From the NCBI GenBank assembly GCA_041483675.1, contig JBGPGE010000006.1, forward strand, positions 8,978 through 72,977: a stretch of 64,000 bases of DNA. The letters are read 5' to 3'. Below, piece by piece: positions 1 through 27,751 of the stretch. The notes beneath the pieces are model-generated. The model did not search any database. It had not been told where the DNA came from and saw only the letters and a list, made by a program, of their open reading frames with translations. Both the position numbers and the translations under genes were made by a program. The DNA comes from Candidatus Binatia bacterium. GTDB taxonomy: Bacteria > Desulfobacterota > Binatia > UBA9968. Position 1 is the first letter of the stretch, and each line of letters opens with the position of its first letter.

Positions 1-363
1 ATGGCCGTAGATGGTAAAGACAAACTTGTTGTTCATCGAGGCGAAAAACACCAGGTCGCGTTGCCCGCGTAGATACGCGTTCGGTCCGGCCGAGCCCCCC
101 CCGCCCAGGATATCGATCTCGCCGGCGAAAAAAGCCGACAGCGACAGCGGCGAGGAGCCAACGTGAACGAGCTCGACGTCAAGGCCGTTCTTGGCGAAGA
201 AGCCCGCGTCTTTGGCCACCCAAAGAGGGAGATACACGGTGACCGGCGCGGGATAAGAGATGCGCAGCGTCTTGCGCTGCGCGGACACCGTCGCGGGAAG
301 GGCGAGAAAAAAATAAAGCGCGCCCGTTAAAAAAATTAGTTTCTTCACCGCCTGAATTTTCAT
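1..363 (-). CDS. ABC transporter substrate-binding protein, NMT1/SsuA-like (N-terminal part only; gene runs off window edge)
   Basis: Reverse-strand translation from ATG at 361-363 gives MKIQAVKKLIFLTGALYFFLALPATVSAQRKTLRISYPAPVTVYLPLWVAKDAGFFAKNGLDVELVHVGSSPL... This is a signal peptide followed by clear similarity to the SBP paralogs at 6816..7823 and 7826..8794. A GAGG Shine-Dalgarno motif sits 6 nt upstream. The gene is absent from the ORF track because no stop codon lies inside the window. Confidence 0.6.
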   Translation of the reverse strand, partial: MKIQAVKKLIFLTGALYFFLALPATVSAQRKTLRISYPAPVTVYLPLWVAKDAGFFAKNGLDVELVHVGSSPLSLSAFFAGEIDILGGGGSAGPNAYLRGQRDLVFFASMNNKFVFTIYGH

Positions 364-370
364 CGTCGCC

Positions 371-1426
371 TCACTCATCGCTCGGCTCGCCCTGCTCGAC
401 GTGCATGAAGCCAAGGTTTTCCATCAGCGGCCGGTTGTGATGGACCAGCAGCCGTGCCGGCTCCTCACCGGTGTTGAAATGCTGGTGCCACGCAAATACC
501 GGTATGCAGAGAACGTCGCCCCTCCCCCAGTCGTATCGCCGATCTTCGATCATGCTGTAGCCGCAACCGGACAAAATATAATTCACCTCTTCGTACATGT
601 GCCGGTGCGCGCCGGAGCGTTTTCCCGAAGAGATCTCGGCCAACAGCGTCCCCAGAACCCGCATGAGAAAGCCGGTTCGCGGGTCGATCACATAGCGAAT
701 GCGGCCCATGGCCGTCTTTTCGAAAGCGATCTCTGCTCCTTTTACCAACACCCGGCTTTGGCGGCGTCGTTTCTCCTCGCCCCCCGAAAAAGACAACTGT
801 TGCCGGTAGTGCGCATCGGTCTGGTTGAGAGGCTCCGTCGACGATTCCGCGGCCGCGCGGACGCGCGTGCTGTCGTCCGCGCCCGGAATCAGCGACTTCA
901 TCGCGCTTTCGCTCTTGTGGCCGAAGACCCAATAGTCGGGATACCGCTCGTCCTCGTAGACCGCCAATCCCAGAGACAGAGAGAGCGGGCCGGTCGTCGC
1001 CGCGAGATAAATGAAATCCTTGTCGCCTGTGTTCACGTGCCGGTGCCAGGAAAACATCGGCACGCTGATGAAATCGCCCGGCTCCCAGTCGTAGCGCGTG
1101 CCGTCGACGATGCTGTGGCCGCTGCCTTGATGCACGTGGAGCACCGCCTCGACCGTGTGGCGGTGGCCGAGCGTCTTCCAGCCCATGCCCTCTTCCTCGC
1201 CTGCCGGGATGCGGTTGATCCAGAACCGAAACGTCCGGTGGTTGAATCCCAGGCGGGGATCGACGAGGTAGAGATGCGAGTTGTTCGCGAACTGCGCGCG
1301 AATTTCCTCGGCCTTGATCTGGACCGGCGCCTGCTGCCGCCGCTTCGCCTCTTCCTTGGCGAAGCGAACCGACTCCATCATCATCCGGTCGTGCTCTTCG
1401 GGGCGGAGGATTGCCATGGCTTTCAA
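371..1426 (-). CDS. bicupin dioxygenase, gentisate 1,2-dioxygenase-like
   Basis: 351-aa ORF with two cupin barrels carrying His-rich motifs (HRH, WHRH, AWHQH). Its start overlaps the upstream UbiD stop by 4 nt (ATGA). Confidence 0.6.
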   Translation of the reverse strand: MKAMAILRPEEHDRMMMESVRFAKEEAKRRQQAPVQIKAEEIRAQFANNSHLYLVDPRLGFNHRTFRFWINRIPAGEEEGMGWKTLGHRHTVEAVLHVHQGSGHSIVDGTRYDWEPGDFISVPMFSWHRHVNTGDKDFIYLAATTGPLSLSLGLAVYEDERYPDYWVFGHKSESAMKSLIPGADDSTRVRAAAESSTEPLNQTDAHYRQQLSFSGGEEKRRRQSRVLVKGAEIAFEKTAMGRIRYVIDPRTGFLMRVLGTLLAEISSGKRSGAHRHMYEEVNYILSGCGYSMIEDRRYDWGRGDVLCIPVFAWHQHFNTGEEPARLLVHHNRPLMENLGFMHVEQGEPSDE

Positions 1427-2859
1427 TGAAGTCTCGACAGCAGGTCATGCCATTTTTTCGAGACCGCGCTCTTCTTCCCGGCGCTGAGCGCGTTCGTCGC
1501 TGGAAAATCCTTGATCCAGCGGTACGGCCGGCAGGCGTCGATGATCATCTTGGATGAGACGAAGTGACCCTGCTCGCGGTCCTCCGGCGCGACGCGCGGG
1601 TTGATGCCGCTGGTTGGAAAGCCCTTCAAGACTTCGCTTTGCTCCGCGGGATCGCAGCGCGTTGTGATCGCCCAGAAGACGTCGCGCAGATCCGACGGGT
1701 CGATGTCCTCATCGACGAGGATGACGAATCTTCCGAGATGCACCGTGGCGCGGACCCCGAGCGCGATCGCCGCCGCCTGGCGCGCGTGGCCTTCGTAGCG
1801 CTGCTTGAGCGAGATCACCGTCGCGAAGGGTCCGTGCAGCCAGACACCGCGAACGTCTTGAATGCCGGCGGATTCCAACGCGGACCATACGCCCGCCGCC
1901 GGCAGCGGAATGCCGAAGTGATCCATCCCCGGAACCGGCTTGAGCGGCGGATCGCCCTGGATGATCGGCTCGTCGCGGTGCATAAGCGACAAGACGCGCA
2001 CGACCGGCTCGTTTCTCGTCCCGGTCGCGTAGTAGCCGGTGCGCTCGCCGAACGGCCCTTCGGGACGCGCCTCTTTTTCGCCCGGAGGAATCTCTCCCTC
2101 GACGACAATCTCTGCGTGCGCGGGAATCGGGAGCCCGGTTTTTTCGCCCTTCAAGACTTCCACCGGCTCGCCCCGAAGCCAGCCGGCGACGCTCAACTCG
2201 CCGACGCCCCAGGGCTCGCGCTGCGCCGCGGCCAGATAAAGCGCGGGCTCCTGCCCGAACGAGATAGCCACCGGGCAGCTCTTTCCCCGCGCCCAGTATT
2301 TCTCGACGATCAGCCGGCCGTGCTGGATGTGGTTGATGAAAATGCCGAGGGTGTTTTTATCGTGGACCACCACGCGATAGACGCCCATATTCACCCAGCC
2401 GTCGTCGGGGTCGCGCGTGAGCACGCAGCAGCCAGTGCCGATGTAGTAGCCGCCGTCTTTCTCGTGCCACCTCGGCGCGGGGAATTTGAGCAGATCGACT
2501 TTACCTCCCGAAAAAGCATTTTCCCGCACCGGACCGTCTGCGACTTCTCGCGGCTCGATCTTCTTGAATGTCCTAAGCTTTTCTTTCCACTCCTTGACGA
2601 GATCGACGTTGCCGAGCGACGGATCGAGGCCCAAGCCGAGCGCCATTCGGCGCACGCCGCCCATCGTGCCGGCCGAAACGCGGTATCCCACGGGGTAGCC
2701 CTTGATCTTGTCGAACAAAACCATCGGGTGCTTGGCCGTGCTCGCGACGATTTCAGCCAGCGCGCCGATCTCCTCTTCGCGGTCCGCGCCGTCGATCTTG
2801 AGCAGGTCGCCGTGCTCTTCGACTTTGTGGAGATAGTCTCTCAGGCTTTGGAACGGCAT
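1423..2859 (-). CDS. UbiD-family (prFMN-dependent) aromatic acid decarboxylase
   Basis: 478 aa. N-terminus MPFQSLRDYL...LLKIDGADRE and overall length are typical of the UbiD / 3-octaprenyl-4-hydroxybenzoate carboxy-lyase family. Its start is overlapped by 19 nt by the upstream XDH-family gene. Confidence 0.75.
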   Translation of the reverse strand: MPFQSLRDYLHKVEEHGDLLKIDGADREEEIGALAEIVASTAKHPMVLFDKIKGYPVGYRVSAGTMGGVRRMALGLGLDPSLGNVDLVKEWKEKLRTFKKIEPREVADGPVRENAFSGGKVDLLKFPAPRWHEKDGGYYIGTGCCVLTRDPDDGWVNMGVYRVVVHDKNTLGIFINHIQHGRLIVEKYWARGKSCPVAISFGQEPALYLAAAQREPWGVGELSVAGWLRGEPVEVLKGEKTGLPIPAHAEIVVEGEIPPGEKEARPEGPFGERTGYYATGTRNEPVVRVLSLMHRDEPIIQGDPPLKPVPGMDHFGIPLPAAGVWSALESAGIQDVRGVWLHGPFATVISLKQRYEGHARQAAAIALGVRATVHLGRFVILVDEDIDPSDLRDVFWAITTRCDPAEQSEVLKGFPTSGINPRVAPEDREQGHFVSSKMIIDACRPYRWIKDFPATNALSAGKKSAVSKKWHDLLSRLH

Positions 2860-5096
2860 GCCAAACCCTCGAGGATTTTTTCCGCGGTGACCGGCAGCTC
2901 GGTGATCCGCACCCCGGTCGCGGCGTAGACCGCGTTCGCCACCGCCGGCGCGACGACGCTGACGCCCGCTTCGGCCACCGACTTCGCGCCGAACGGGCCG
3001 GGACCGACCTTCGCTTTAACCAGCGAAGTCGTGAGCGGGACGTTGTCGGCGATGTTCCGAAGCTTGTAGTCGCCAAGCGTCAGCGTGGTCACCCGCCCAT
3101 CTTCGACTTTCAACTCCTCGGTGAGCGCGTAGCCCAGCCCCTGGACGATGCCGCCGTCGATCTGTCCCTGGTGAATCAGCGGATTGATGATCGTGCCCAC
3201 GTCGTAGACGAAGTAGAGCTGTTGCAGCTCGACCGCGCCGGTCTCCCGGTCAACCTCCACGTCGACGACAATCGCCTGAAAAGAGTAGACGTGCGGCTTA
3301 TGCCCCTTGTACTTGCCGAATCCTTTGACCGGCGCTTCCGAAAGGCCCGCCAACTCTTTCAAGCTCAGCTTTTTTCTTTTTCCGTTATTTTTGAAGAGAG
3401 CGGCTCCATCCGCCCAGGAAATCTTTTCGACCGGCGCGCCCCATCGCGACGCGGCGAGAGATCGCAGATTGTCGATCAACGAGGCCGTCGCCCGCGCAAC
3501 CGCCTGTCCCTCGACGTGCGTCCCCCTGGCGCCCTTGATCCCCTGGTCGTACGGAGCGTCGGAGGTATCCCTGACGTCGATCGCAATCGAATCCGGATCG
3601 ATGCCGAGCAGCTCGGCCGCGACCTGGCGGTGCATCGTGTAGGCGCCGACGCCCTGATCGCCGACGCCGCTCAAGAGCCGGAGCGTTCCGTCGCGCTCGA
3701 GCAGCAATTCGAAGCTCGATTCGCCGTGGCCCACGTGGCGGTCGCCGAGCGCCACGCCGCGTCCGATTAATTTATTTCCGGCGGAAGCTTTGGCCGGCTT
3801 CTTTTTCCATCCGGAAATTTTCTCCACGCGATCGAGAACTTCGAGGCAGTGCGGATCTTCCAGCGGTTCTCCCGTTGAGCGCGTGTCGCCCTCTTTCAAC
3901 GCGTTCCGGCGGCGGAATTCGATCGGATCCATGCTGAGCTTTTCAGCCATCAGATCCATCTGGCTTTCGACGGCGAACAGGGTCTGCGTTTCCCCCGGCG
4001 CGCGGAAATAGCCGCACGGCACTTGGTTGGTGTAAACGCAATACCCTTCGAGACGCGTGTTGGGGACATTGTAAGAGCCCGCGACCATATACGCGCCGCT
4101 CATCGAGCCTTCCGGATTCGGCTTGAACGCGCCGTAGGCGCCGCCGTTGTAGAAGGTCTTCCCGTCCCACGCCCACAGCCGGCCGTCCCTCTTGACACCG
4201 ACGCGAAGCTGAACGACCGCGGAATGGCGCGGCGTCGTGGCGCCCAACTCCTCGCTGTAGCTTTTTACGAAGCGCACCGGCCGTCCGGTTTTTTTCGAGA
4301 GGTAGTAAGCGGCCGGATTCAAGAACAGAAAATCTTTCGCGCCGAACGAGCCGCCCATATTGCTCGGGTAGATCGTGATGTCCTCCGGCGCAAGCTCCAG
4401 ATACTCCGCCAGGACGCGGCGCAGCTTGAAGTAGGCCTGGTTCGCCACCCAGATCGCGACGCGACCCTGCCCGTCGACTTCCACCGTGCAGGCGTACGGC
4501 TCGATGTAGCCCTGGTGCACGAGTTGGGTGCGATAGGTTTTCTCGAAGACGTAATCGGATTCGGCGAAGCCTTTTTCGATCTCGCCCTTTCTGCCGCGCA
4601 CCAGCGTCTGGACGTTTTTCAGCTCGAGCGCCATGGTTTTCGGCCCCTTGTAACTCGGGTAGTCCGGATGGAGCAGCGGCGCTTCGGGCTTCATCGCCTC
4701 CAACGGATCGAAGACCGCCGGGAGATCCTCGTAGTCCACGTCGATCAGGTGCACCGCCTCCTCGGCCGTCTCGACATCGACGGCGGCGACGGCCGCGATC
4801 TCCTCGCCGACAAAGCGCACGCGGTCGCGCGCCATGACCGGCATGTCTCGAAGCGTCGCGCCGACGAGCGTCGTTTTCATGTCGGCGGCGGTGACGATCG
4901 CCTTCACGCCGGGGAGGCTCAGCGCCCGGGTCGTGTCTATGTTAAGGATGCGCGCGTGGGGCAGCGGGCTGCGCAGCACCTTACCCCACAGAGAGCCGGG
5001 CCTGAGCACGTCGGCCGCGTAGCTTAATTTGCCGCTCACCTTCGCCGCGCCCTCGACGCGTGGAAAAGATTTACCGATGACTTTGGATGCTTTCAA
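2841..5096 (-). CDS. xanthine dehydrogenase / aldehyde oxidase family molybdopterin-binding large subunit (no adjacent FeS or FAD subunits)
   Basis: 751 aa, beginning directly with the Mo-binding a/b-hammerhead region (MKASKVIGKSFPRVEGAAKVSGKLSYAADV). It is a full-length CoxL/XdhB-like fold and a paralog of 30546..32798. Confidence 0.75.
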   Translation of the reverse strand: MKASKVIGKSFPRVEGAAKVSGKLSYAADVLRPGSLWGKVLRSPLPHARILNIDTTRALSLPGVKAIVTAADMKTTLVGATLRDMPVMARDRVRFVGEEIAAVAAVDVETAEEAVHLIDVDYEDLPAVFDPLEAMKPEAPLLHPDYPSYKGPKTMALELKNVQTLVRGRKGEIEKGFAESDYVFEKTYRTQLVHQGYIEPYACTVEVDGQGRVAIWVANQAYFKLRRVLAEYLELAPEDITIYPSNMGGSFGAKDFLFLNPAAYYLSKKTGRPVRFVKSYSEELGATTPRHSAVVQLRVGVKRDGRLWAWDGKTFYNGGAYGAFKPNPEGSMSGAYMVAGSYNVPNTRLEGYCVYTNQVPCGYFRAPGETQTLFAVESQMDLMAEKLSMDPIEFRRRNALKEGDTRSTGEPLEDPHCLEVLDRVEKISGWKKKPAKASAGNKLIGRGVALGDRHVGHGESSFELLLERDGTLRLLSGVGDQGVGAYTMHRQVAAELLGIDPDSIAIDVRDTSDAPYDQGIKGARGTHVEGQAVARATASLIDNLRSLAASRWGAPVEKISWADGAALFKNNGKRKKLSLKELAGLSEAPVKGFGKYKGHKPHVYSFQAIVVDVEVDRETGAVELQQLYFVYDVGTIINPLIHQGQIDGGIVQGLGYALTEELKVEDGRVTTLTLGDYKLRNIADNVPLTTSLVKAKVGPGPFGAKSVAEAGVSVVAPAVANAVYAATGVRITELPVTAEKILEGLACRSKA

Positions 5097-5156
5097 CGTT
5101 CACATCTCCGGTTAGCTCGTCTTCTTCGCGCCACCCTCGGTCTCGCCGTGGCAGCC

Positions 5157-5239
5157 GCTGCCTGGTCGGAGAGCCCGCGCATCCGATACTGCCGGTTGGA
5201 ATAAGCAGCAATCCATTGCGCGGGCTCGGAGAGCAGGCG
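5157..5239 (+). repeat. 83-bp palindromic intergenic element, family A copy 1 (ggtcg-agagcccgcgc ... gcgcgggctcggagagc-ggcggc)
   Basis: A 10-bp perfect inverted repeat gagcccgcgc/gcgcgggctc with extended imperfect arms. Near-identical copies occur at 9903..9985 and 18823..18905, all in the same orientation. Confidence 0.7.
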
Positions 5240-5279
5240 GCGGCTGCCGCTGCTGCTTTTTACTTTTACCTTTTTACTT

Positions 5280-6659
5280 TCATTCCAATCCCAACTCCCC
5301 CCACCGCCGCAGCACTTTTTGCGTCAGCTCGCGGCTCACCTCGTTCACTTCGGGAAATTCCACGCCTTTGAATTTCGAGGTCGCGTCGATGGCGATGCGT
5401 GACGTGAAGCCGTGCTTCACCAACGGCTGGTGGCCGCCGTGCTGGCGCGGCGGCGTGATCCAAACGTCGCGGTGCGGCTCGCTCCTCGAATAGATGCGCC
5501 ACCATATATTGTTCCAGTCGTCGAGGTCGGCGTCGGCGTCGACCACGATGATCCAGTTCGGCCCCATCGCGTTTACGCCCCAGACCGTCTCGACGATCTG
5601 CATCACCTGTCCCGGCTCCGTGATGTCGGCCGCCACGACGCAAATCTCCCGCCCGCAGCCCGGATCCGGGAAGCGCACGTCGACGACACCGGGCGTGCCG
5701 AGGCTTTTCAACTTGCCCCAGAGAACCGCCGAGCGCGTGATCCGCTTGCCGCCGTCTTCCATGTAATTGCAGATAAGTCCCTGGTGAATCGGATTTTTCC
5801 TGTGTGTGACGCATTTGACTTTGAAGACGAGCCCCTCTTTTTCGTCGCCGTAGAAGCCGTGCGACTCGCCGTGCGGGCCTTCCGTCACCCGCGTTTTCGG
5901 CAGGACTTCGCCTTCGAGAATAATTTCCGAGTGAGCGGGAACGAGCATGTCGATGGTCTCGCACTTCGTCACCTCCACGCCCTTTCCCCGGAGCCCGCCG
6001 ACAAAGGCAAGCTCGGCGTGGCGCGCCAGCCCGGAGCTGATCGGGTTCATCGACGCGATCGAGAGCAGCGGCTCCATGCCGATCGCCACCGCCATCGGCA
6101 TCGGCTCGTTGCGCGCTTCGTACTGGCGGTAGTGCGCCAACCCATCGCGGTGCATCGACATGTAAAGCGTGTTTTTGTCTTTGATGACCAGCCGATACAT
6201 GCCCATGTTCTGGTCGCCGGTGGCGCGGTCCCTGGTAATGCAGCCGTGAAACGTGCCGAGATAGGGTCCGACGTCCCTTTCATGCCAGACCGGCGTGGGA
6301 AACTTGTAGAGATCGACCTGTCCGTCTTTTTGAATTTCCTCCTTACAGGGGCCGCCTTTCACTTCGACCGGCTGCGTCGGGTTTTTGAAGCCGGAGAGAA
6401 ATTTCTCGAACATCGTCTTCATGTCGCCCTCGATGCCGAAGGCGATGGCCATTTTTTTATCCGTCGAGAGCACGTTCGTGACGAGCGGTGTCTTGTGGCC
6501 CTTGATGTTTTCGAACATGAGCGCCGGGCCTTTTTTGAGCAGCGAATGATACGCGATCGCGCCCAGCTCGTGGACCGGATCGACCTCCGCCTTGACACGC
6601 TTTAACTCGCCCACGTTTTCCAGCGCATTCAAAAACTCGCGCAACGAATCGAATGGCAT
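5280..6659 (-). CDS. UbiD-family decarboxylase (second paralog)
   Basis: ORF 5280..6722. The start is chosen at the internal ATG (MPFDSLREFLNALE...), which has an AAGGAG Shine-Dalgarno 7 nt upstream and aligns with the N-terminus of the paralog at 1423..2859. Confidence 0.7.
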   Translation of the reverse strand: MPFDSLREFLNALENVGELKRVKAEVDPVHELGAIAYHSLLKKGPALMFENIKGHKTPLVTNVLSTDKKMAIAFGIEGDMKTMFEKFLSGFKNPTQPVEVKGGPCKEEIQKDGQVDLYKFPTPVWHERDVGPYLGTFHGCITRDRATGDQNMGMYRLVIKDKNTLYMSMHRDGLAHYRQYEARNEPMPMAVAIGMEPLLSIASMNPISSGLARHAELAFVGGLRGKGVEVTKCETIDMLVPAHSEIILEGEVLPKTRVTEGPHGESHGFYGDEKEGLVFKVKCVTHRKNPIHQGLICNYMEDGGKRITRSAVLWGKLKSLGTPGVVDVRFPDPGCGREICVVAADITEPGQVMQIVETVWGVNAMGPNWIIVVDADADLDDWNNIWWRIYSRSEPHRDVWITPPRQHGGHQPLVKHGFTSRIAIDATSKFKGVEFPEVNEVSRELTQKVLRRWGELGLE

Positions 6660-21516: not shown

Positions 21517-21960
21517 CTATAGAATAGAGACGCTGCCGCCCCTGGTAACCTTTGCGATGAACGGCCCGGGACGGTTCTTCAGAAGGCGCTTCATTTTTGG
21601 GAGGGCTTTCACGTAGGCCTCCGCCATTTCGCTACCTCGAAGCTGAGCGGACGCCAAGACGAATGCTCGCACGCCCGCGTTCCGTAGGGCTTGCTGTTCG
21701 GTCGCTCGATACCGGATGCGGTCGTCTTTCGTCAGGACTATCCACCCTTTTCGCCCAACTTCGATGAGCCACTCCGCATCCTTGGCGTCCGGAAGAAAAT
21801 GATCGTCATGGATTTCGACTGTCTCGCCGGCATTTCGGAGGGCCTGGGCAACCACGTTCTTGCCCAGTGACCGGTCGAGGAAGAAGATGATTGGTTCAGG
21901 CGGCTTCGAGCCAGAGCTCGCAGCGGATGGCCTCCTCGATCTCGCCCCGGCCTCGCCCAT
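21517..21960 (-). CDS. DUF5615-like (PIN-like) putative toxin partner of the DUF433 protein
   Basis: 147-aa ORF with conserved core IIFFLDRSLGKNVV...IHDDHF. The start is uncertain: the listed ATG overlaps the upstream gene by 65 nt. Confidence 0.4.
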   Translation of the reverse strand: MGEAGARSRRPSAASSGSKPPEPIIFFLDRSLGKNVVAQALRNAGETVEIHDDHFLPDAKDAEWLIEVGRKGWIVLTKDDRIRYRATEQQALRNAGVRAFVLASAQLRGSEMAEAYVKALPKMKRLLKNRPGPFIAKVTRGGSVSIL

Positions 21961-22648
21961 AATCCCCCGCTAGTTCATCAATCGACTCCCCGGCTTTGTA
22001 GCGCTCCGCTATAACCGCCGTAGGAATGCCGGTTCCTACCAGCACAGGCCGGCCAAAGGAAATCTGCGGATCGATAACCACAACCCTCGGCTCCTGGGCA
22101 TCGCGTTTTCTGGTAAAGGGAAACAGCCTTACCGCGTGGCCGGCGGGATCGTGTTCGACGCGTTTGAGGTGAGCTTGAAGCAATTTTTTGATCGCGAGCT
22201 GACCCTCTCGGGAAACGTTGATCAGCTGGCCGTATTTCTCGATGAACAGATCGAGACCGTCGGTTTCGAACCGATGCTCCGCCAGAGGATGTTCCGAGCC
22301 AAACTCTGCTTTGATGTAGTTGAGAGCTGTCCTTACTTTGGCGAGGGGGATTTCGTGAATCCGCCGGAGAGCATCGAGCACATGGACTTCGACCAGATTA
22401 ACGAACGAAAGCAGACGATGGTCCGTATCGGGGAGATCGACGATCGGTTTAAAGAATCTTCGACCGGCCTCGGTCTGATAATAACGGCCGACCGCCCAGG
22501 ATCGAAGGGTCGCGCGAGGTATGAGGAGATAGTGCGAAGCTTCCGTAACGCTGAAGGCGGGTAATTCTCTTACGTCCTGATTTTTTTCGAACTTACAGCC
22601 TCGGTTCTGCACTGAAGGGACTATGCCCCAAGGGGTAGAGATAGTCAA
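21896..22648 (-). CDS. DUF433 domain protein with long N-terminal extension
   Basis: The C-terminal 60 aa (ISFGRPVLVGTGIPTAVIAERYKAGESIDELAGDYG...) match the DUF433 antitoxin-like domain. The N-terminal 170 aa are unassigned. Confidence 0.45.
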   Translation of the reverse strand: MTISTPWGIVPSVQNRGCKFEKNQDVRELPAFSVTEASHYLLIPRATLRSWAVGRYYQTEAGRRFFKPIVDLPDTDHRLLSFVNLVEVHVLDALRRIHEIPLAKVRTALNYIKAEFGSEHPLAEHRFETDGLDLFIEKYGQLINVSREGQLAIKKLLQAHLKRVEHDPAGHAVRLFPFTRKRDAQEPRVVVIDPQISFGRPVLVGTGIPTAVIAERYKAGESIDELAGDYGRGRGEIEEAIRCELWLEAA

Positions 22649-22782: not shown

Positions 22783-22800
22783 AAAAGACGGACAGCCGTC
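22783..22800 (-). terminator. weak hairpin plus T-run downstream of the HerA-like gene
   Basis: Minus-strand sequence gacggctgtccgtcttttgt immediately after the stop. Confidence 0.25.
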
Positions 22801-22806
22801 AAAGTT

Positions 22807-24264
22807 CTAGTTCATTCTTCTTCTTCCGGTACGAATAATAGCGGGGGGTCCAAGATCGCCGTATATCAGAGCCTCATGCCGACGAAATGTCGCGGCTCTT
22901 GATATTAATTCTGCGGATACGTCCAGCGTGCTTTTCGATAGCGAGAGCAAATCATCTTGGTTCTGTAACTTGAGAACGAAAAAGTTTCTGCAATTATCCA
23001 AGGCATTAGGATGAATTTTAGCGGGTCGCTGTGACACGAGGATTAAATGGAGTCCGTATTTCCGTCCTTCGCCAGAAATGCGATTGACCCATTCCAGAGT
23101 TCTCTTCTGCCACGGTTCCTCTGGTATTGCGGGAGCAAGGTTGTGAGCCTCATCAATTATGACAAAGGTCGGATTTTTTGTCTTTTCATTACGTTCCCAT
23201 AACTTTCTTAGGACCCCCTCCGCTAAGATTGCCCTATGGGAAAACTGTAATCTTCCCAGGTTATATTCGATTAACCGAGATGGGTCAGATTTTTCCAGAA
23301 GGTCAAGCGAGTCGGTCTCCTCAGACGACCAAATCGGGGCATCTTTCATTCGTTTAAAAAAATCGCGCAAAATAGTCAGACCCTTGAGTTCTTCGTCTTG
23401 CAAGAGATACCTGTAACCAGCAGGAATTCCTTCATTACGCTGAATCGCATCTCGTGTTTTCTCTTCGCATGTTGCGGGAGAGATGGGCTTATCCTTCGGC
23501 AAATTTTTACAAAAATGGTCAAAAAGCGATTCGACCTTAAAGTGATACGGTATACTCTCCAGCTGCAATAGATCAGGAGAGGAAAATCTCTGCATTTTGA
23601 TTTGGGGCAAAGGGATCAGGTCCATTGAAATACTTTTGAGCGCTTTCTGCTGCTGTCTTAAAACCTCATCCGTGATGTTTTCGCATGCGTTATCCTTTGA
23701 ATTTACATCCGTTTCGAGCCTCGCTTGGTCGAAGGTCGCAAAATCTGAATTGAGATCTAGGATAACGATTTGTGTATCCGGACAGTTTAAAAGAATCTCC
23801 TCGAGTAACAAACCGAGTAATGTTGTCTTACCAGAACCTGAGCTGCCGAGCATGCATGAATGGGTTCCTAGAAGGTTCTCCCCATTGAGAACGACTGATA
23901 CGTGGCCATCTATCCCTGAAAGCTCCCCTACATTAAGGGAGACCTTTGATTGAGTACTGAACAGCTTAGCTAACGATGCACCGGGATCTGGAATGAATAC
24001 GGTCGCACCGACCAGTTCGTAAGCAACACCCGAACTAAGGATTTTGCAATGGTATTCGTACTGCGCGTAGCGTTGTACTCCAGAGGAAGGAGACAGCTCC
24101 TTGCCGGTAAATTCTTCTATTATTGCGGGGATACGGTGATCTGTCTTTTTCGGCACAACTTCAACGTAGTTCCCTGGAATCAGTGTATGCCCCGCTGACT
24201 TTATAAAAGTAAATCGCTCGGGGCTGATTTGTTTTACGACTCTGCCAACCGCGGGTAGTGCCAT
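22807..24264 (-). CDS. HerA-like / DUF87 (FtsK-HerA superfamily) ATPase
   Basis: 485 aa with an N-terminal HAS-barrel-like region, Walker A GSSGSGKTT, Walker B/DEAH-like VIIDEAHNLAP, and the LILVSQRP motif. It lies in a low-GC (about 45-50%) island. Confidence 0.7.
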   Translation of the reverse strand: MALPAVGRVVKQISPERFTFIKSAGHTLIPGNYVEVVPKKTDHRIPAIIEEFTGKELSPSSGVQRYAQYEYHCKILSSGVAYELVGATVFIPDPGASLAKLFSTQSKVSLNVGELSGIDGHVSVVLNGENLLGTHSCMLGSSGSGKTTLLGLLLEEILLNCPDTQIVILDLNSDFATFDQARLETDVNSKDNACENITDEVLRQQQKALKSISMDLIPLPQIKMQRFSSPDLLQLESIPYHFKVESLFDHFCKNLPKDKPISPATCEEKTRDAIQRNEGIPAGYRYLLQDEELKGLTILRDFFKRMKDAPIWSSEETDSLDLLEKSDPSRLIEYNLGRLQFSHRAILAEGVLRKLWERNEKTKNPTFVIIDEAHNLAPAIPEEPWQKRTLEWVNRISGEGRKYGLHLILVSQRPAKIHPNALDNCRNFFVLKLQNQDDLLSLSKSTLDVSAELISRAATFRRHEALIYGDLGPPAIIRTGRRRMN

Positions 24265-24661: not shown

Positions 24662-25105
24662 ATGAACCTTGAACGAGGGTTTCGGCGCATCGTATTGACT
24701 ATCTCTTTCACGGCTGCTAGCGCGGGTCTTGTAGTCACGGCCTACGATATCTACAAGTACATTGAGTACGTGTCTGGAATAAAAAAATGGGTCGCGTGCG
24801 TCGAAGAAATTCACTCGCGGACCCCTACCGAGGAAGAGTTCTGGACTAAGTTCGGTCGTAAGGGCCCTTCCGACTGCGAGCACTTCTCGACAGATAGGCC
24901 AACGCCCTTCTTCCCCGTTATGACGCACTGGACCACGACCTTCTATAGTTATGATAGTGTAGCCGGCTTCTCGATTACACTACCATCATACACCCCCACC
25001 CTGGTCCTTTTCATATGGGGCGTCCTTGTGAGTACAGGGCTTGGCGCGATCCCCTGGGGAGTGTTTTACCTAGCGCGATGGATCGTCCACGGCTTCAAGG
25101 TTTGA
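24662..25105 (+). CDS. small membrane protein (about 3 TM), hypothetical
   Basis: 147 aa, with an AGGAGA Shine-Dalgarno 6 nt upstream. Hydrophobic segments at residues 9-28 and 108-140. Low-GC codon usage matches the island. Confidence 0.45.
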   Translation: MNLERGFRRIVLTISFTAASAGLVVTAYDIYKYIEYVSGIKKWVACVEEIHSRTPTEEEFWTKFGRKGPSDCEHFSTDRPTPFFPVMTHWTTTFYSYDSVAGFSITLPSYTPTLVLFIWGVLVSTGLGAIPWGVFYLARWIVHGFKV

Positions 25106-25120
25106 AAAAGGGTGAGAACC

Positions 25121-25309
25121 ATGAGGAAAGGGTGTTATCTGACGGTTTTGCTGGCATGGGTGCCAAAGCTGAGCCACGCCCTGCGCGGCGGCCTCAAGCC
25201 GATGGTTAGGCCTTACAGTCATCTCGATACGGAAAATCCCACGCAGCCAACGGAGCTGCTCAGGGGTACGGCGTACCGGTTTGCCACTTGGTCTCCAGGT
25301 CGGCAATGA
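25121..25309 (+). CDS. small hypothetical protein with hydrophobic N-terminus
   Basis: 62 codons directly downstream of the membrane protein (MRKGCYLTVLLAWVPKLSHA...). An alternative GTG start lies at 25112. The gene overlaps the 3' end of the convergent 25260..26006 gene. Confidence 0.25.
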   Translation: MRKGCYLTVLLAWVPKLSHALRGGLKPMVRPYSHLDTENPTQPTELLRGTAYRFATWSPGRQ

Positions 25310-26006
25310 TCGCCGCCTTGTCGACGATTTCAATGCAATTGAAGGGCTTCTTGCCTGCGTCCTTGAGCGAACCACCTACCAGCCAGCACCGATCGTTGAA
25401 GATTAGATGCCGATCATGAAGAGACGGAGCACGTCTGACTCGAAGCTGATGTCCCTCAGCGGTGAACGCGGCGATGGCACGGTCGAAGTCCGGCTCCACG
25501 GAATTCTGGTACGTTCCAGTTAGCAGCATGACAGGGATTGTGAGGCTGCGGAGGCAATCAAGGGTTCCCACTCCAACGTATGGATCGACGATGAAGACTG
25601 CTCCAGTGGCAGTCTCGAGGAGTTCTCGGACCTTCGATTTCGCCGAAAATACGTTGCCTGCGGCCACCGTGATATCACTAGGCGCGGCGGTTGTTTCAAA
25701 AAACTTCTGTGCCTCGCAAATGACAGCAGTCATTTTACAATGAAACTCTTGTCGCTCCCAGGACGTGTGCGCAATACCATCGGTGTTACGGCTTTCGGCG
25801 AGATCCAGCAGGCTGTCCAGCAGCCGCCGTGAGTTTCCGTGTTCGAGCTTGGTTGTCAGTTCTCGCGCTACGGACAACCACTTTGGCTCAGAGTCGTTAA
25901 TGGTTTCGAGGTCCACATCGAACAGAGTCACCAACTCGCGAAACTCGTCGATCGTGAAGTAACCTTCGAATATGGAAACGAGTTTGAGCGCCAGTTCTGG
26001 AAACAT
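25260..26006 (-). CDS. hypothetical protein with PLD-nuclease-like C-terminal domain carrying a non-canonical HxR...D...GS motif
   Basis: 248 aa. The C-terminal region (VFIVDPYVG...LTIPVMLLTGTY...SLHDRHLIFNDRCWLVGGSLK) resembles the PLD/Nuc family strand-motif pattern (HxKx4Dx6GSxN), but with K->R and N->K substitutions. The N-terminal 75 aa are helical. Confidence 0.35.
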   Translation of the reverse strand: MFPELALKLVSIFEGYFTIDEFRELVTLFDVDLETINDSEPKWLSVARELTTKLEHGNSRRLLDSLLDLAESRNTDGIAHTSWERQEFHCKMTAVICEAQKFFETTAAPSDITVAAGNVFSAKSKVRELLETATGAVFIVDPYVGVGTLDCLRSLTIPVMLLTGTYQNSVEPDFDRAIAAFTAEGHQLRVRRAPSLHDRHLIFNDRCWLVGGSLKDAGKKPFNCIEIVDKAAIIADLETKWQTGTPYP

Positions 26007-26344: not shown

Positions 26345-27313
26345 CTACCCGAGCGCCCGCGAGTACTTCTCGCGGAGTTTTCCAAAGCGGCGGCCGCATT
26401 CTCGCGACGCCTCGGCGAAGTCGGGTGGCATGACGTTGTACGGCGGCCGGATGGGACCGGTCTTGCAGTAACCGGACGCGGTCATCAGGATCTTTTCCAT
26501 CTGAATGTTGTAGGACGCGAAAACTTCCTGCGAGCCGGTGATGATGTGATGCGGTTCGAGAGCCCATGCGATATCCTCGGCGACCGCCTTGGCCCGCTCA
26601 GCGTCCCGCGCCGCCAGCGCCTGCATGAGCGCGAGGCCGGGTTGCGGCCCCACCGCGGGAATCCAACATGTCGTAGCGGTCTCAGGGGATAGCTGAGCGA
26701 ATTCATAAGCGAGACCGACGGGAGGGACGAAGTTTACGCGCCCTTTGGTCGCAGCCACCGCTTCGCGCAGAATTCCCTTGCTGGCAAATTTGGCGGACAT
26801 GACCGTCGGCGCTCTCTCGACAACGATTTTCCAGAAGTCGAGATCGAACCCGTAACGAAAGGCGCGCGGGTTGGCATAGACCATAACGGGAAAATCCGGG
26901 AACGTTTCGGAAACGGAAGCGTAGAATTGCACCGCCATATCGCGCGTGGCCGGCTGCCACATTGGAATTCCCAAGAGGGTGCCGGTGGCGCCGCGCTCCT
27001 TTACAAACCGGATGCGGCGCGCAATCTCATGGCCCCCTAACGCCGTCGTTCCGATAAACGTGGGGATGCGGCCGCGGACCGTCTTGAGCAGACAATCCAC
27101 GTACGCCTCGTAGTCGCCGTGCGAAACGGTCGCGCATTCTCCCATGGTTCCGAGCGCCATGATGCCGGTCGCGCCGTCGCGGACGAGACTCTCGGCGAGA
27201 CGGGCGGTTTCATCCAGATCCACCGTATCGACCGCATCCAGTCGCTCGGCTCCGTCCCTGGCCGGCGTCGGCATGATCGCTAACGCACCGCGCAGATCGT
27301 TGGCGCTGATCAT
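26345..27313 (-). CDS. dihydrodipicolinate synthase / N-acetylneuraminate lyase (DapA) family protein
   Basis: 322 aa with the GTMGE motif (GxxGE of DHDPS-family class I aldolases). A strong GGGAGGAG Shine-Dalgarno is present. Confidence 0.65.
   Translation of the reverse strand: MISANDLRGALAIMPTPARDGAERLDAVDTVDLDETARLAESLVRDGATGIMALGTMGECATVSHGDYEAYVDCLLKTVRGRIPTFIGTTALGGHEIARRIRFVKERGATGTLLGIPMWQPATRDMAVQFYASVSETFPDFPVMVYANPRAFRYGFDLDFWKIVVERAPTVMSAKFASKGILREAVAATKGRVNFVPPVGLAYEFAQLSPETATTCWIPAVGPQPGLALMQALAARDAERAKAVAEDIAWALEPHHIITGSQEVFASYNIQMEKILMTASGYCKTGPIRPPYNVMPPDFAEASRECGRRFGKLREKYSRALG

Positions 27314-27675: not shown

Positions 27676-27751
<76 letters not shown>

Follow-up and report, generated by a model that had tools for sequence, protein, structure and literature searches.

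A 64,000-nucleotide stretch of DNA from a Candidatus Binatia bacterium (contig JBGPGE010000006.1, positions 8,978 to 72,977; hereafter the window) encodes on its reverse strand, at 25260..26006, a 248 aa protein that we read, with a probability of roughly 0.55, as a self-contained defence-type effector: a phospholipase D (PLD) type phosphodiesterase, bearing a His-Asp-Arg (HDR) motif, that would be gated by a family-specific N-terminal domain. The predicted fold of its C-terminal domain and the homologues found for it are those of HDR-type PLD (HDR-PLD) proteins, the polar residues of the putative active site are conserved across the family, and the gene stands alone, in surroundings that vary from relative to relative and include defence genes at several loci. 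The features of the gene referred to throughout, with the evidence on which each was placed, are the following.

25260..26006, reverse strand: whole open reading frame (ORF), a two-domain HDR-type PLD protein of 248 aa plus stop codon, with an ATG start (ORF list and sequence).
25689..26006, reverse strand: N-terminal domain, aa 1-106, a predicted five-helix bundle (AlphaFold2 model of the domain alone).
25263..25688, reverse strand: C-terminal domain, aa 107-248, predicted PLD fold of the MIT_C-like 'DPY...HDR' class (Foldseek, profile against the PDB, PADLOC, NCBIfam).
25578..25586, reverse strand: D141-P142-Y143, with the acidic residue right after strand beta2 (conservation, MITD1 alignment and the description in PMC12065111).
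25347..25418, reverse strand: H197-K220, HDRHLIFNDRCWLVGGSLKDAGKK, the counterpart of the HKD motif, which the AlphaFold2 model places on the beta5-beta6 hairpin (conservation).
25410-25418, reverse strand: H197-D198-R199 (sequence).

Public assemblies of this contig also annotate the ORF as a gene, and it contains all the strings quoted in a sequence-only reading of this DNA: VFIVDPYVG (residues 136-144), LTIPVMLLTGTY (155-166) and LHDRHLIFNDRCWLVGGSLKD (196-216). Homology searches returned 272 homologues at E<=1e-3 in a database clustered at 90%, whereas an exhaustive search of 50% identity representatives matched 1109 clusters, mostly over just residues ~100-248. Family members are mostly ~250 aa long, and their named source organisms are Nitrospira, Acidobacteriota, Binatia and Rokubacteria metagenome-assembled genomes. 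Neither domain of the 248 aa protein had a Pfam match at E<=1.

The C-terminal domain is predicted to adopt a phospholipase D fold

An AlphaFold2 model of the full protein, computed from an input alignment of 31 homologues, has a mean pLDDT (predicted local distance difference test) score of 91.4 and consists of an all-helical region (residues 1-106) followed by an alpha/beta region (107-248). A Foldseek comparison with the PDB placed MITD1 at the top (2YMB, E 1.2e-6; 4A5Z, with 23% identity; probability 1.00). Further matches at probability 1.00 comprised TrmBL2, polyphosphate kinase 1 (PPK1), bacterial and human PLDs including PLD2, SauUSI through its PLD nuclease domain (TMq 0.45, root-mean-square deviation 3.3), Zucchini (E 6e-4), the phosphatidylserine synthase PssA and the PLD-like human protein BJ-TSA-9 (PDB 4URJ). 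Within the model, VFIVDPYVG supplies strand beta2 (137-140) followed by D141, LTIPVMLLTGTY forms beta3, and the HDR triplet opens beta5 (199-203). As modelled, the C-terminal half has a true phospholipase D fold. The sequence-only reading had described this region as PLD-like, and AlphaFold2 and Foldseek agree with it in giving a PLD fold rather than a chance resemblance; the non-PLD fold that it had named as grounds for abandoning the idea did not emerge from structure prediction. The Pfam family PLDc_2 was matched weakly by three of the 31 relatives (best E 0.0054) and not by the 248 aa protein itself.

The HKD-equivalent motif is conserved in an altered register

Conservation was counted over 275 fetched relatives, with identities down to about 28% and totals that vary from column to column. 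The aspartate that follows beta2, D141, is kept in 259 of 260 relatives, and the HDR triplet is nearly as constant (H197 in 250/256, D198 in 253/257, R199 in 255/257). On the hairpin, G211 (240/250), S213 (245/250), K215 (240/250), G218 (244/250) and K220 (224/250) stand out, while position 204 is N or D in 242 of 254 sequences, with Asp in distant relatives (HDRYLIVD, HDRFLIID). The next column, D205, is variable, holding D, G, E, N or Q. The resulting family motif can be written H-x-R-x4-(N/D)-x6-G-x-S-x-K-D-x-G-x-K.

Set against the canonical HxK(x)4D(x)6GSxN pattern, the motif keeps the His, has R199 for the Lys and N204 for the Asp, and replaces GSxN by G211-x-S213-x-K215, with K215 one position past the canonical Asn. 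The Lys to Arg replacement proposed earlier from the letters of this gene is thus a family trait, given R199 in 255 of 257 relatives, and the proposed Asn to Lys replacement holds insofar as the canonical Asn of GSxN is gone, but the Lys lies one residue beyond the Asn position. The extra residue that had been placed before the Asp, with D205 in the catalytic role, did not survive the alignment: N204 holds the canonical HxK(x)4D spacing and D205 is variable, and the one-residue lengthening therefore falls after the N/D position, in the hairpin. Judged from these alignments, the motif is not a random degenerate HKD but marks the protein as one of the MIT_C-like 'DPY...HDR' class, and the near-invariance of the polar site argues against a dead domain. 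The earlier description of the protein as a diverged nuclease is possible.

MITD1 is the closest solved relative

Compared as a single sequence, the protein matches MITD1 weakly (E 0.54), in an alignment that pairs SLHDRHLIFND with SIHDREIRFNN. A profile built from 24 diverse C-terminal domains, down to 28% identity, retrieved MITD1 from the PDB at E 8.4e-5, aligning IVDPYV with IEDPYI, LLT with LLT and HDR with HDR. The corresponding Pfam family, MIT_C (PF16565), was matched weakly by nine of the 31 relatives (E>=0.015) and not by the 248 aa protein. The MIT_C domain of MITD1 (PF16565; PDB 2YMB, 4A5Z) is the closest solved structure by both fold and profile, sharing the DPY motif, LLT on beta3 and HDR, but MITD1 has RGLDYFKK where the 248 aa protein has SLKDAGKK, and it carries an N-terminal MIT domain that binds ESCRT-III, unlike the unrelated five-helix N-terminal domain of the prokaryotic protein.

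An HDR class of PLD domains has been described by two marks, a conserved Asp/Glu that follows beta2 and an HDR motif that precedes beta5 (PMC12065111), and the 248 aa protein has both marks, D141 after beta2 and H197-D198-R199 at the start of beta5. The same description, through which the two are likened here, covers PB-PLD1 of Menshen NsnC, which has these two marks and most resembles MIT_C; it was proposed to be a nuclease effector and classed with predicted nuclease domains (PMC12065111). PB-PLD1 belongs to a three-gene system, in which it makes up the C-terminal part of a ParB-like protein; the gene in the window, by contrast, stands alone. The canonical single-HKD nucleases (Nuc, Zucchini, the SauUSI domain) share with the 248 aa family the fold, a His where the hairpin begins and the spacing from His to (D/N), but they have Lys instead of Arg, Asp instead of Asn, GSxN instead of G-x-S-x-K, and lack the extra invariant Asp141. 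The C-terminal domains of TrmBL2 and TrmB rank high in both the structural and the profile searches, with matches that span the entire C-domain, but these DNA- or sugar-binding regulators with winged helix-turn-helix N-termini have no HDR motif in the alignment.

Two anti-phage families carry the same domain

The PDC-S05 hidden Markov model of PADLOC matched residues 92-234 of the 248 aa protein (E 2.8e-19; positions 153-297 of the 306 in the model, or 47% of it, at its C-terminal end), and the NCBIfam model VPA1262_N_dom (NF040700) matched residues 99-235 (E 6.3e-8; model positions 311-470 of 478) with a score of 31.8 bits, far below the 80-bit family cutoff. A tblastn search of plasmids with the C-domain likewise found genes annotated as RhuM family (in Bacteroidales), ORF6N domain-containing and VPA1262 family. 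Translations of two of these display the same motifs: LIDNYVD...SHDRFLIVD...GASLKDLGKK in the RhuM protein WP_117974805, and IIVDPYF...VLTS...VHDRFLVID...GNSLNEIGKR in the 536 aa VPA1262-family protein WP_040137397 of Azospirillum.

Both families have been tested against phages. One PDC-S05 representative lowers the plating of T7 and T5 about 1000-fold and also protects against T4, and VPA1262, or 'Juno', gives >100-fold protection against four coliphages; we found no mechanism for PDC-S05 or VPA1262 in the literature. PDCs are defined by their embedding in restriction-modification (RM), BREX, DISARM or Hma loci (bioRxiv 10.1101/2024.01.29.577857). RhuM/PDC-S05 resembles the 248 aa protein in having the same HDR-PLD domain as its C-terminal half and in being a single-gene system, but it has a RhuM/ORF6N-type N-terminal domain and is defined by its embedding in RM, BREX or DISARM loci, neither of which applies to the 248 aa protein. 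VPA1262 is also a single gene with anti-phage activity, and the HDR-PLD match falls close to the C-terminus of its model; unlike the 248 aa protein, the Azospirillum protein has a large additional N-terminal region.

The Azospirillum gene (3912-5522 of locus L026, from plasmid NZ_CP007796) follows, after a gap of 32 bp, a same-strand gene for an 'ATP-binding protein' of >1290 aa (1-3879), and overlaps a downstream gene for a 160 aa hypothetical protein by 4 bp; some VPA1262-family members may therefore not be single-gene systems.

The N-terminal domain is specific to the family

Modelled alone with AlphaFold2, the N-terminal domain has a pLDDT of 91.6 and five helices (3-16, 19-28, 43-52, 57-80 and 83-105). 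Neither Foldseek (best E 1.9, nothing significant) nor a profile search identified a relative of it in the PDB. Among 274 proteins with the C-domain, 93 lack this N-terminal domain and bear other extensions, typically of 80-130 aa, or domain fusions, which join the HDR-PLD domain to TIR_2 (P0239, 534 aa), a DUF2321 zinc ribbon (P0242, 351 aa), an integrase SAM-like domain (P0233, 383 aa) or a RhuM-type domain (P0260). A constant C-terminal module joined to a variable N-terminus is the pattern that would be expected of a sensor plus effector, and the N-terminal domain of the 248 aa protein is accordingly described here as a family-specific module with a putative sensory or regulatory role. Neither domain occurs a second time nearby, in the window or at the homologue loci.

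The TIR fusion P0239 raises the question of which of its domains is the sensor and which the effector. An identity of the N-terminal domain as an effector-associated or death-like adaptor was also considered and dropped: EAD7 appeared in two of the 31 members at E 0.1, the Foldseek matches to pyrin and to bacterial death-like domains had E>5 and a probability of 0.15 or less, and the domain has no second copy in the window or at the loci, which makes this an unsupported lead.

Homologues lie in heterogeneous surroundings

The surroundings of the homologues are heterogeneous and, where examined, often related to defence or mobility, in a scan that covered about 20 neighbours. One locus (L001) has CAP12/PCTIR-type TIR proteins, an SRA/HNH protein and a patatin, another (L005) a TIR protein, a GHKL ATPase and an integrase, and a third (L006) a DUF5677 protein. 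A full-length Lit protease homologue (6196-7089 of L009; PADLOC 1.4e-113) lies 0.6 kb upstream of a PLD gene whose product is 86% identical to that of the window, and an AriA/OLD-like ABC ATPase (6181-7940 of L011) is found, together with a small ORF, directly upstream of another homologue. All-against-all clustering of the neighbouring ORFs at 19 PLD loci yielded no conserved family.

Small upstream ORFs were considered as possible partners and rejected, since the same-strand ORFs at six loci (L004, L006, L007, L009, L010, L011) are mutually unrelated except in the two closest relatives. Those of L007, L009, L010 and L011 had no match in Pfam or PADLOC (for L011, in Pfam), and no same-strand small ORF lies just upstream of the PLD gene in the window.

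A phage origin was likewise set aside, with zero PHROG matches and five weak matches to virus records, three of them in haloviruses. The haloarchaeal tailed viruses HRTV-16 (MZ334506), HRTV-9 (MZ334505) and HJTV-3 (MZ334515) encode hypothetical proteins that are weakly HDR-PLD-like (26-28% identity, E 4e-5 to 2e-4), and a Haloarcula plasmid also encodes a protein weakly similar to the HDR-PLD domain.

The neighbouring HerA-like ATPase does not travel with the PLD gene

In the window, a DHDPS-family gene (26345-27313) lies on one side of the PLD gene; on the other, at a distance of about 1 kb downstream, is a gene for a HerA-like ATPase (22807-24264, reverse strand; 485 aa; DUF87; PADLOC HerA matches up to 3.8e-36), which has no SIR2 or DUF4297 partner. 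The sequence-only reading had suggested that the PLD protein might be an inactive adaptor for this ATPase; the two would then form a two-gene system. The genes do share a strand and lie about 1 kb apart, HerA ATPases pair with effectors in known defence systems (SIR2-HerA, DUF4297-HerA), and PADLOC HerA models match the window ATPase. However, the 248 aa protein has no Pfam or PADLOC match to a SIR2 or DUF4297 domain, and a tblastn search with the window HerA, the 147 aa ORF that lies between the two genes, and the DUF433 and PIN proteins described below gave zero matches in 20 PLD-homologue loci, including those whose PLD proteins are 86% and 83% identical to that of the window.

The HerA side was covered by seven loci for five HerA homologues (L021-L023, L028-L030 and L031). 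No PLD relative stands beside them, according to a direct search in L021-L023 and for two neighbours in L028, and otherwise according to the listed gene calls. At the locus of the closest HerA homologue (69% amino acid identity), nucleotide similarity to the window is confined to 22795-24264, that is, to the HerA ORF, and the two neighbours tested there (proteins of 246 and 97 aa) are unrelated to the PLD protein. The listed neighbours of a partial, 59%-identical homologue (L031) have no PLD-family match, what comes after the homologues at 34-46% identity is GNAT plus AAA_17 genes or a KaiC-like ATPase and never a PLD, and a metagenome scan for close HerA relatives found none. GC content differs as well, at 0.60-0.65 in the flanks, 0.43-0.47 in HerA and 0.53-0.55 in the PLD gene, a difference that suggests that HerA and the PLD gene were acquired separately, and the 147 aa ORF between the genes is convergent with the PLD gene. 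Because co-occurrence is lacking from the PLD side and from the HerA side alike, the adaptor proposal is unsupported; comparative genomics of these sequences largely refutes the two-gene reading, and we regard it as very improbable.

Several other features of the region were recorded. Directly downstream of HerA, the reverse strand encodes a DUF433/HTH_66 protein (21896-22648) and a PIN_10 protein (21517-21960), which overlap by 65 nt and look like a toxin-antitoxin pair. The 147 aa ORF (24662-25105, forward strand), situated within the 1 kb that separates HerA from the PLD gene, is gene-called in public assemblies and has hydrophobic stretches at both ends and zero family matches in Pfam, PADLOC, NCBIfam and PHROGs. 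A tRNA-Ala(GGC) gene (27676-27751, reverse strand) lies between the DHDPS-family gene and recN, and the lower-GC islet (about 22.2-26.3 kb) does not directly adjoin it; no integrase was seen among the ORFs listed for the part of the window examined. The GNAT acetyltransferase and AAA_17 kinase-like genes follow HerA in two of the three more distant homologues, and could represent an uncharacterised three-gene module.

Proposed mechanism and alternative explanations

We infer for the 248 aa family an anti-phage function that would depend on a catalytic, dimeric C-domain and a sensory N-domain. A horizontally acquired, stand-alone, two-domain gene would carry residues 1-106 where relatives carry other, unrelated N-termini. 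By analogy with single-HKD PLD enzymes, the C-domain would pair with a second copy and so build a phosphodiesterase site, in which His197 would be the nucleophile and the phosphate would be bound by Arg199 (for Lys), Ser213 and Lys215, with Asp141 and Asn204 to position them. Until an infection cue was sensed, the enzyme would be kept off by the variable N-domain; thereupon a phosphodiester substrate, with nucleic acid as the leading guess, would be cleaved and the phage or the infected cell stopped.

A number of points weigh against this proposal. The Lys of the canonical HKD motif and the Asn of GSxN are both substituted, and the literature reports no enzymatic activity for any HDR-type PLD domain. 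The PDC-S05 and VPA1262 matches cover the shared C-domain only, and the phenotype of the validated proteins may not transfer, because their N-terminal parts differ. The defence context is anecdotal, with recognised defence genes at about five of 19 loci plus the window and ~20 neighbours scanned. Furthermore, MITD1, the only structurally studied homologue, is described as using its PLD-like domain for membrane association, and its antiviral effect is independent of that domain (PMC11962514). Because MITD1 reportedly uses the domain for membranes and has its antiviral effect without it, a non-catalytic membrane- or ligand-binding role is still conceivable. The idea of an antiviral module conserved from bacteria to humans through MITD1 was weakened, and was rejected, because MITD1 did not require the PLD-like domain for its antiviral activity.

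The alternative of a PLD fold without catalysis that would bind membranes or lipids, as has been described for MITD1, and would act by going to the membrane or disturbing it, with the basic residues R199, K215, K219 and K220 contacting phospholipid head groups, draws on the position of MITD1 as the nearest solved relative, on the richness of the conserved motif in Lys and Arg, and on the description of the MITD1 PLD-like domain as mediating membrane association (PMC11962514; likewise the title of Hadders et al. 2012, as cited). We nevertheless consider it unlikely, since a His-Asp-Arg triplet that, with Asp141 and Ser213, is near-invariant at about 28% identity is rather what a catalytic or ligand site would show, the equivalent PB-PLD1 domain is counted among predicted nuclease domains (PMC12065111), and no transmembrane or amphipathic anchor was noticed. 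Quite unlikely, in our estimate, is a ligand- or DNA-binding, non-catalytic PLD fold that acts as sensor or regulator in the manner of the C-terminal domain of TrmBL2, an archaeal chromatin protein, or of the part of TrmB that binds sugar, with the helical N-domain as its output. The rank of TrmBL2 and TrmB among the best structural and profile matches speaks for it, as does the fusion of some relatives to TIR (P0239), which might itself be the effector. TrmBL2, however, lacks the HDR motif in the profile alignment and is therefore a degenerate member, and no output is evident in the 248 aa family: its N-domain shows neither an enzymatic signature nor detectable relatives, and its loci have no conserved gene for a partner effector.

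A gene that a mobile element carries for its own benefit and not to shield the host from phages, be it a toxin, an addiction-type gene or something else outside defence, would fit the earlier proposal of RhuM-like proteins as toxin domains (PMC3710099), the contexts that include integrases, plasmids and a few virus genomes, and the lower GC content around the window gene. We hold this to be quite improbable, given that no antitoxin-like gene conservedly adjoins the PLD gene and that two families with the same domain protected against phages when tested.

Implications for the HDR-PLD family

This class of fold, and its connection with defence candidates, were known before from the literature and from PADLOC; what is new here is the architecture, in which the HDR-PLD module is joined to an N-terminal domain that lacks annotation. 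The window also holds a lesson for annotation, as gene order alone would wrongly imply a HerA-PLD two-gene system. The HDR-PLD domain is widespread, and it is present in two newly validated anti-phage families and in human MITD1. Among its architectures the 248 aa family is one of the smallest, with a confident structure prediction and no partner genes, and these properties make it a convenient entry point for biochemistry and for questions of gating by the N-domain. Beyond this family, we suggest only tentatively, as a possibility we would not yet favour, that HDR-PLD domains constitute a distinct enzyme class, with a His nucleophile, Arg for Lys and an extra invariant Asp, that gives many single-gene anti-phage proteins the module with which they kill or restrict. 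If that were true, the substrate of the class need not be DNA, and the 248 aa family would be a minimal, tractable member of it, which through homology could also reveal whether human MITD1 harbours a cryptic enzyme in its MIT_C domain, a speculation of Li et al. 2025.

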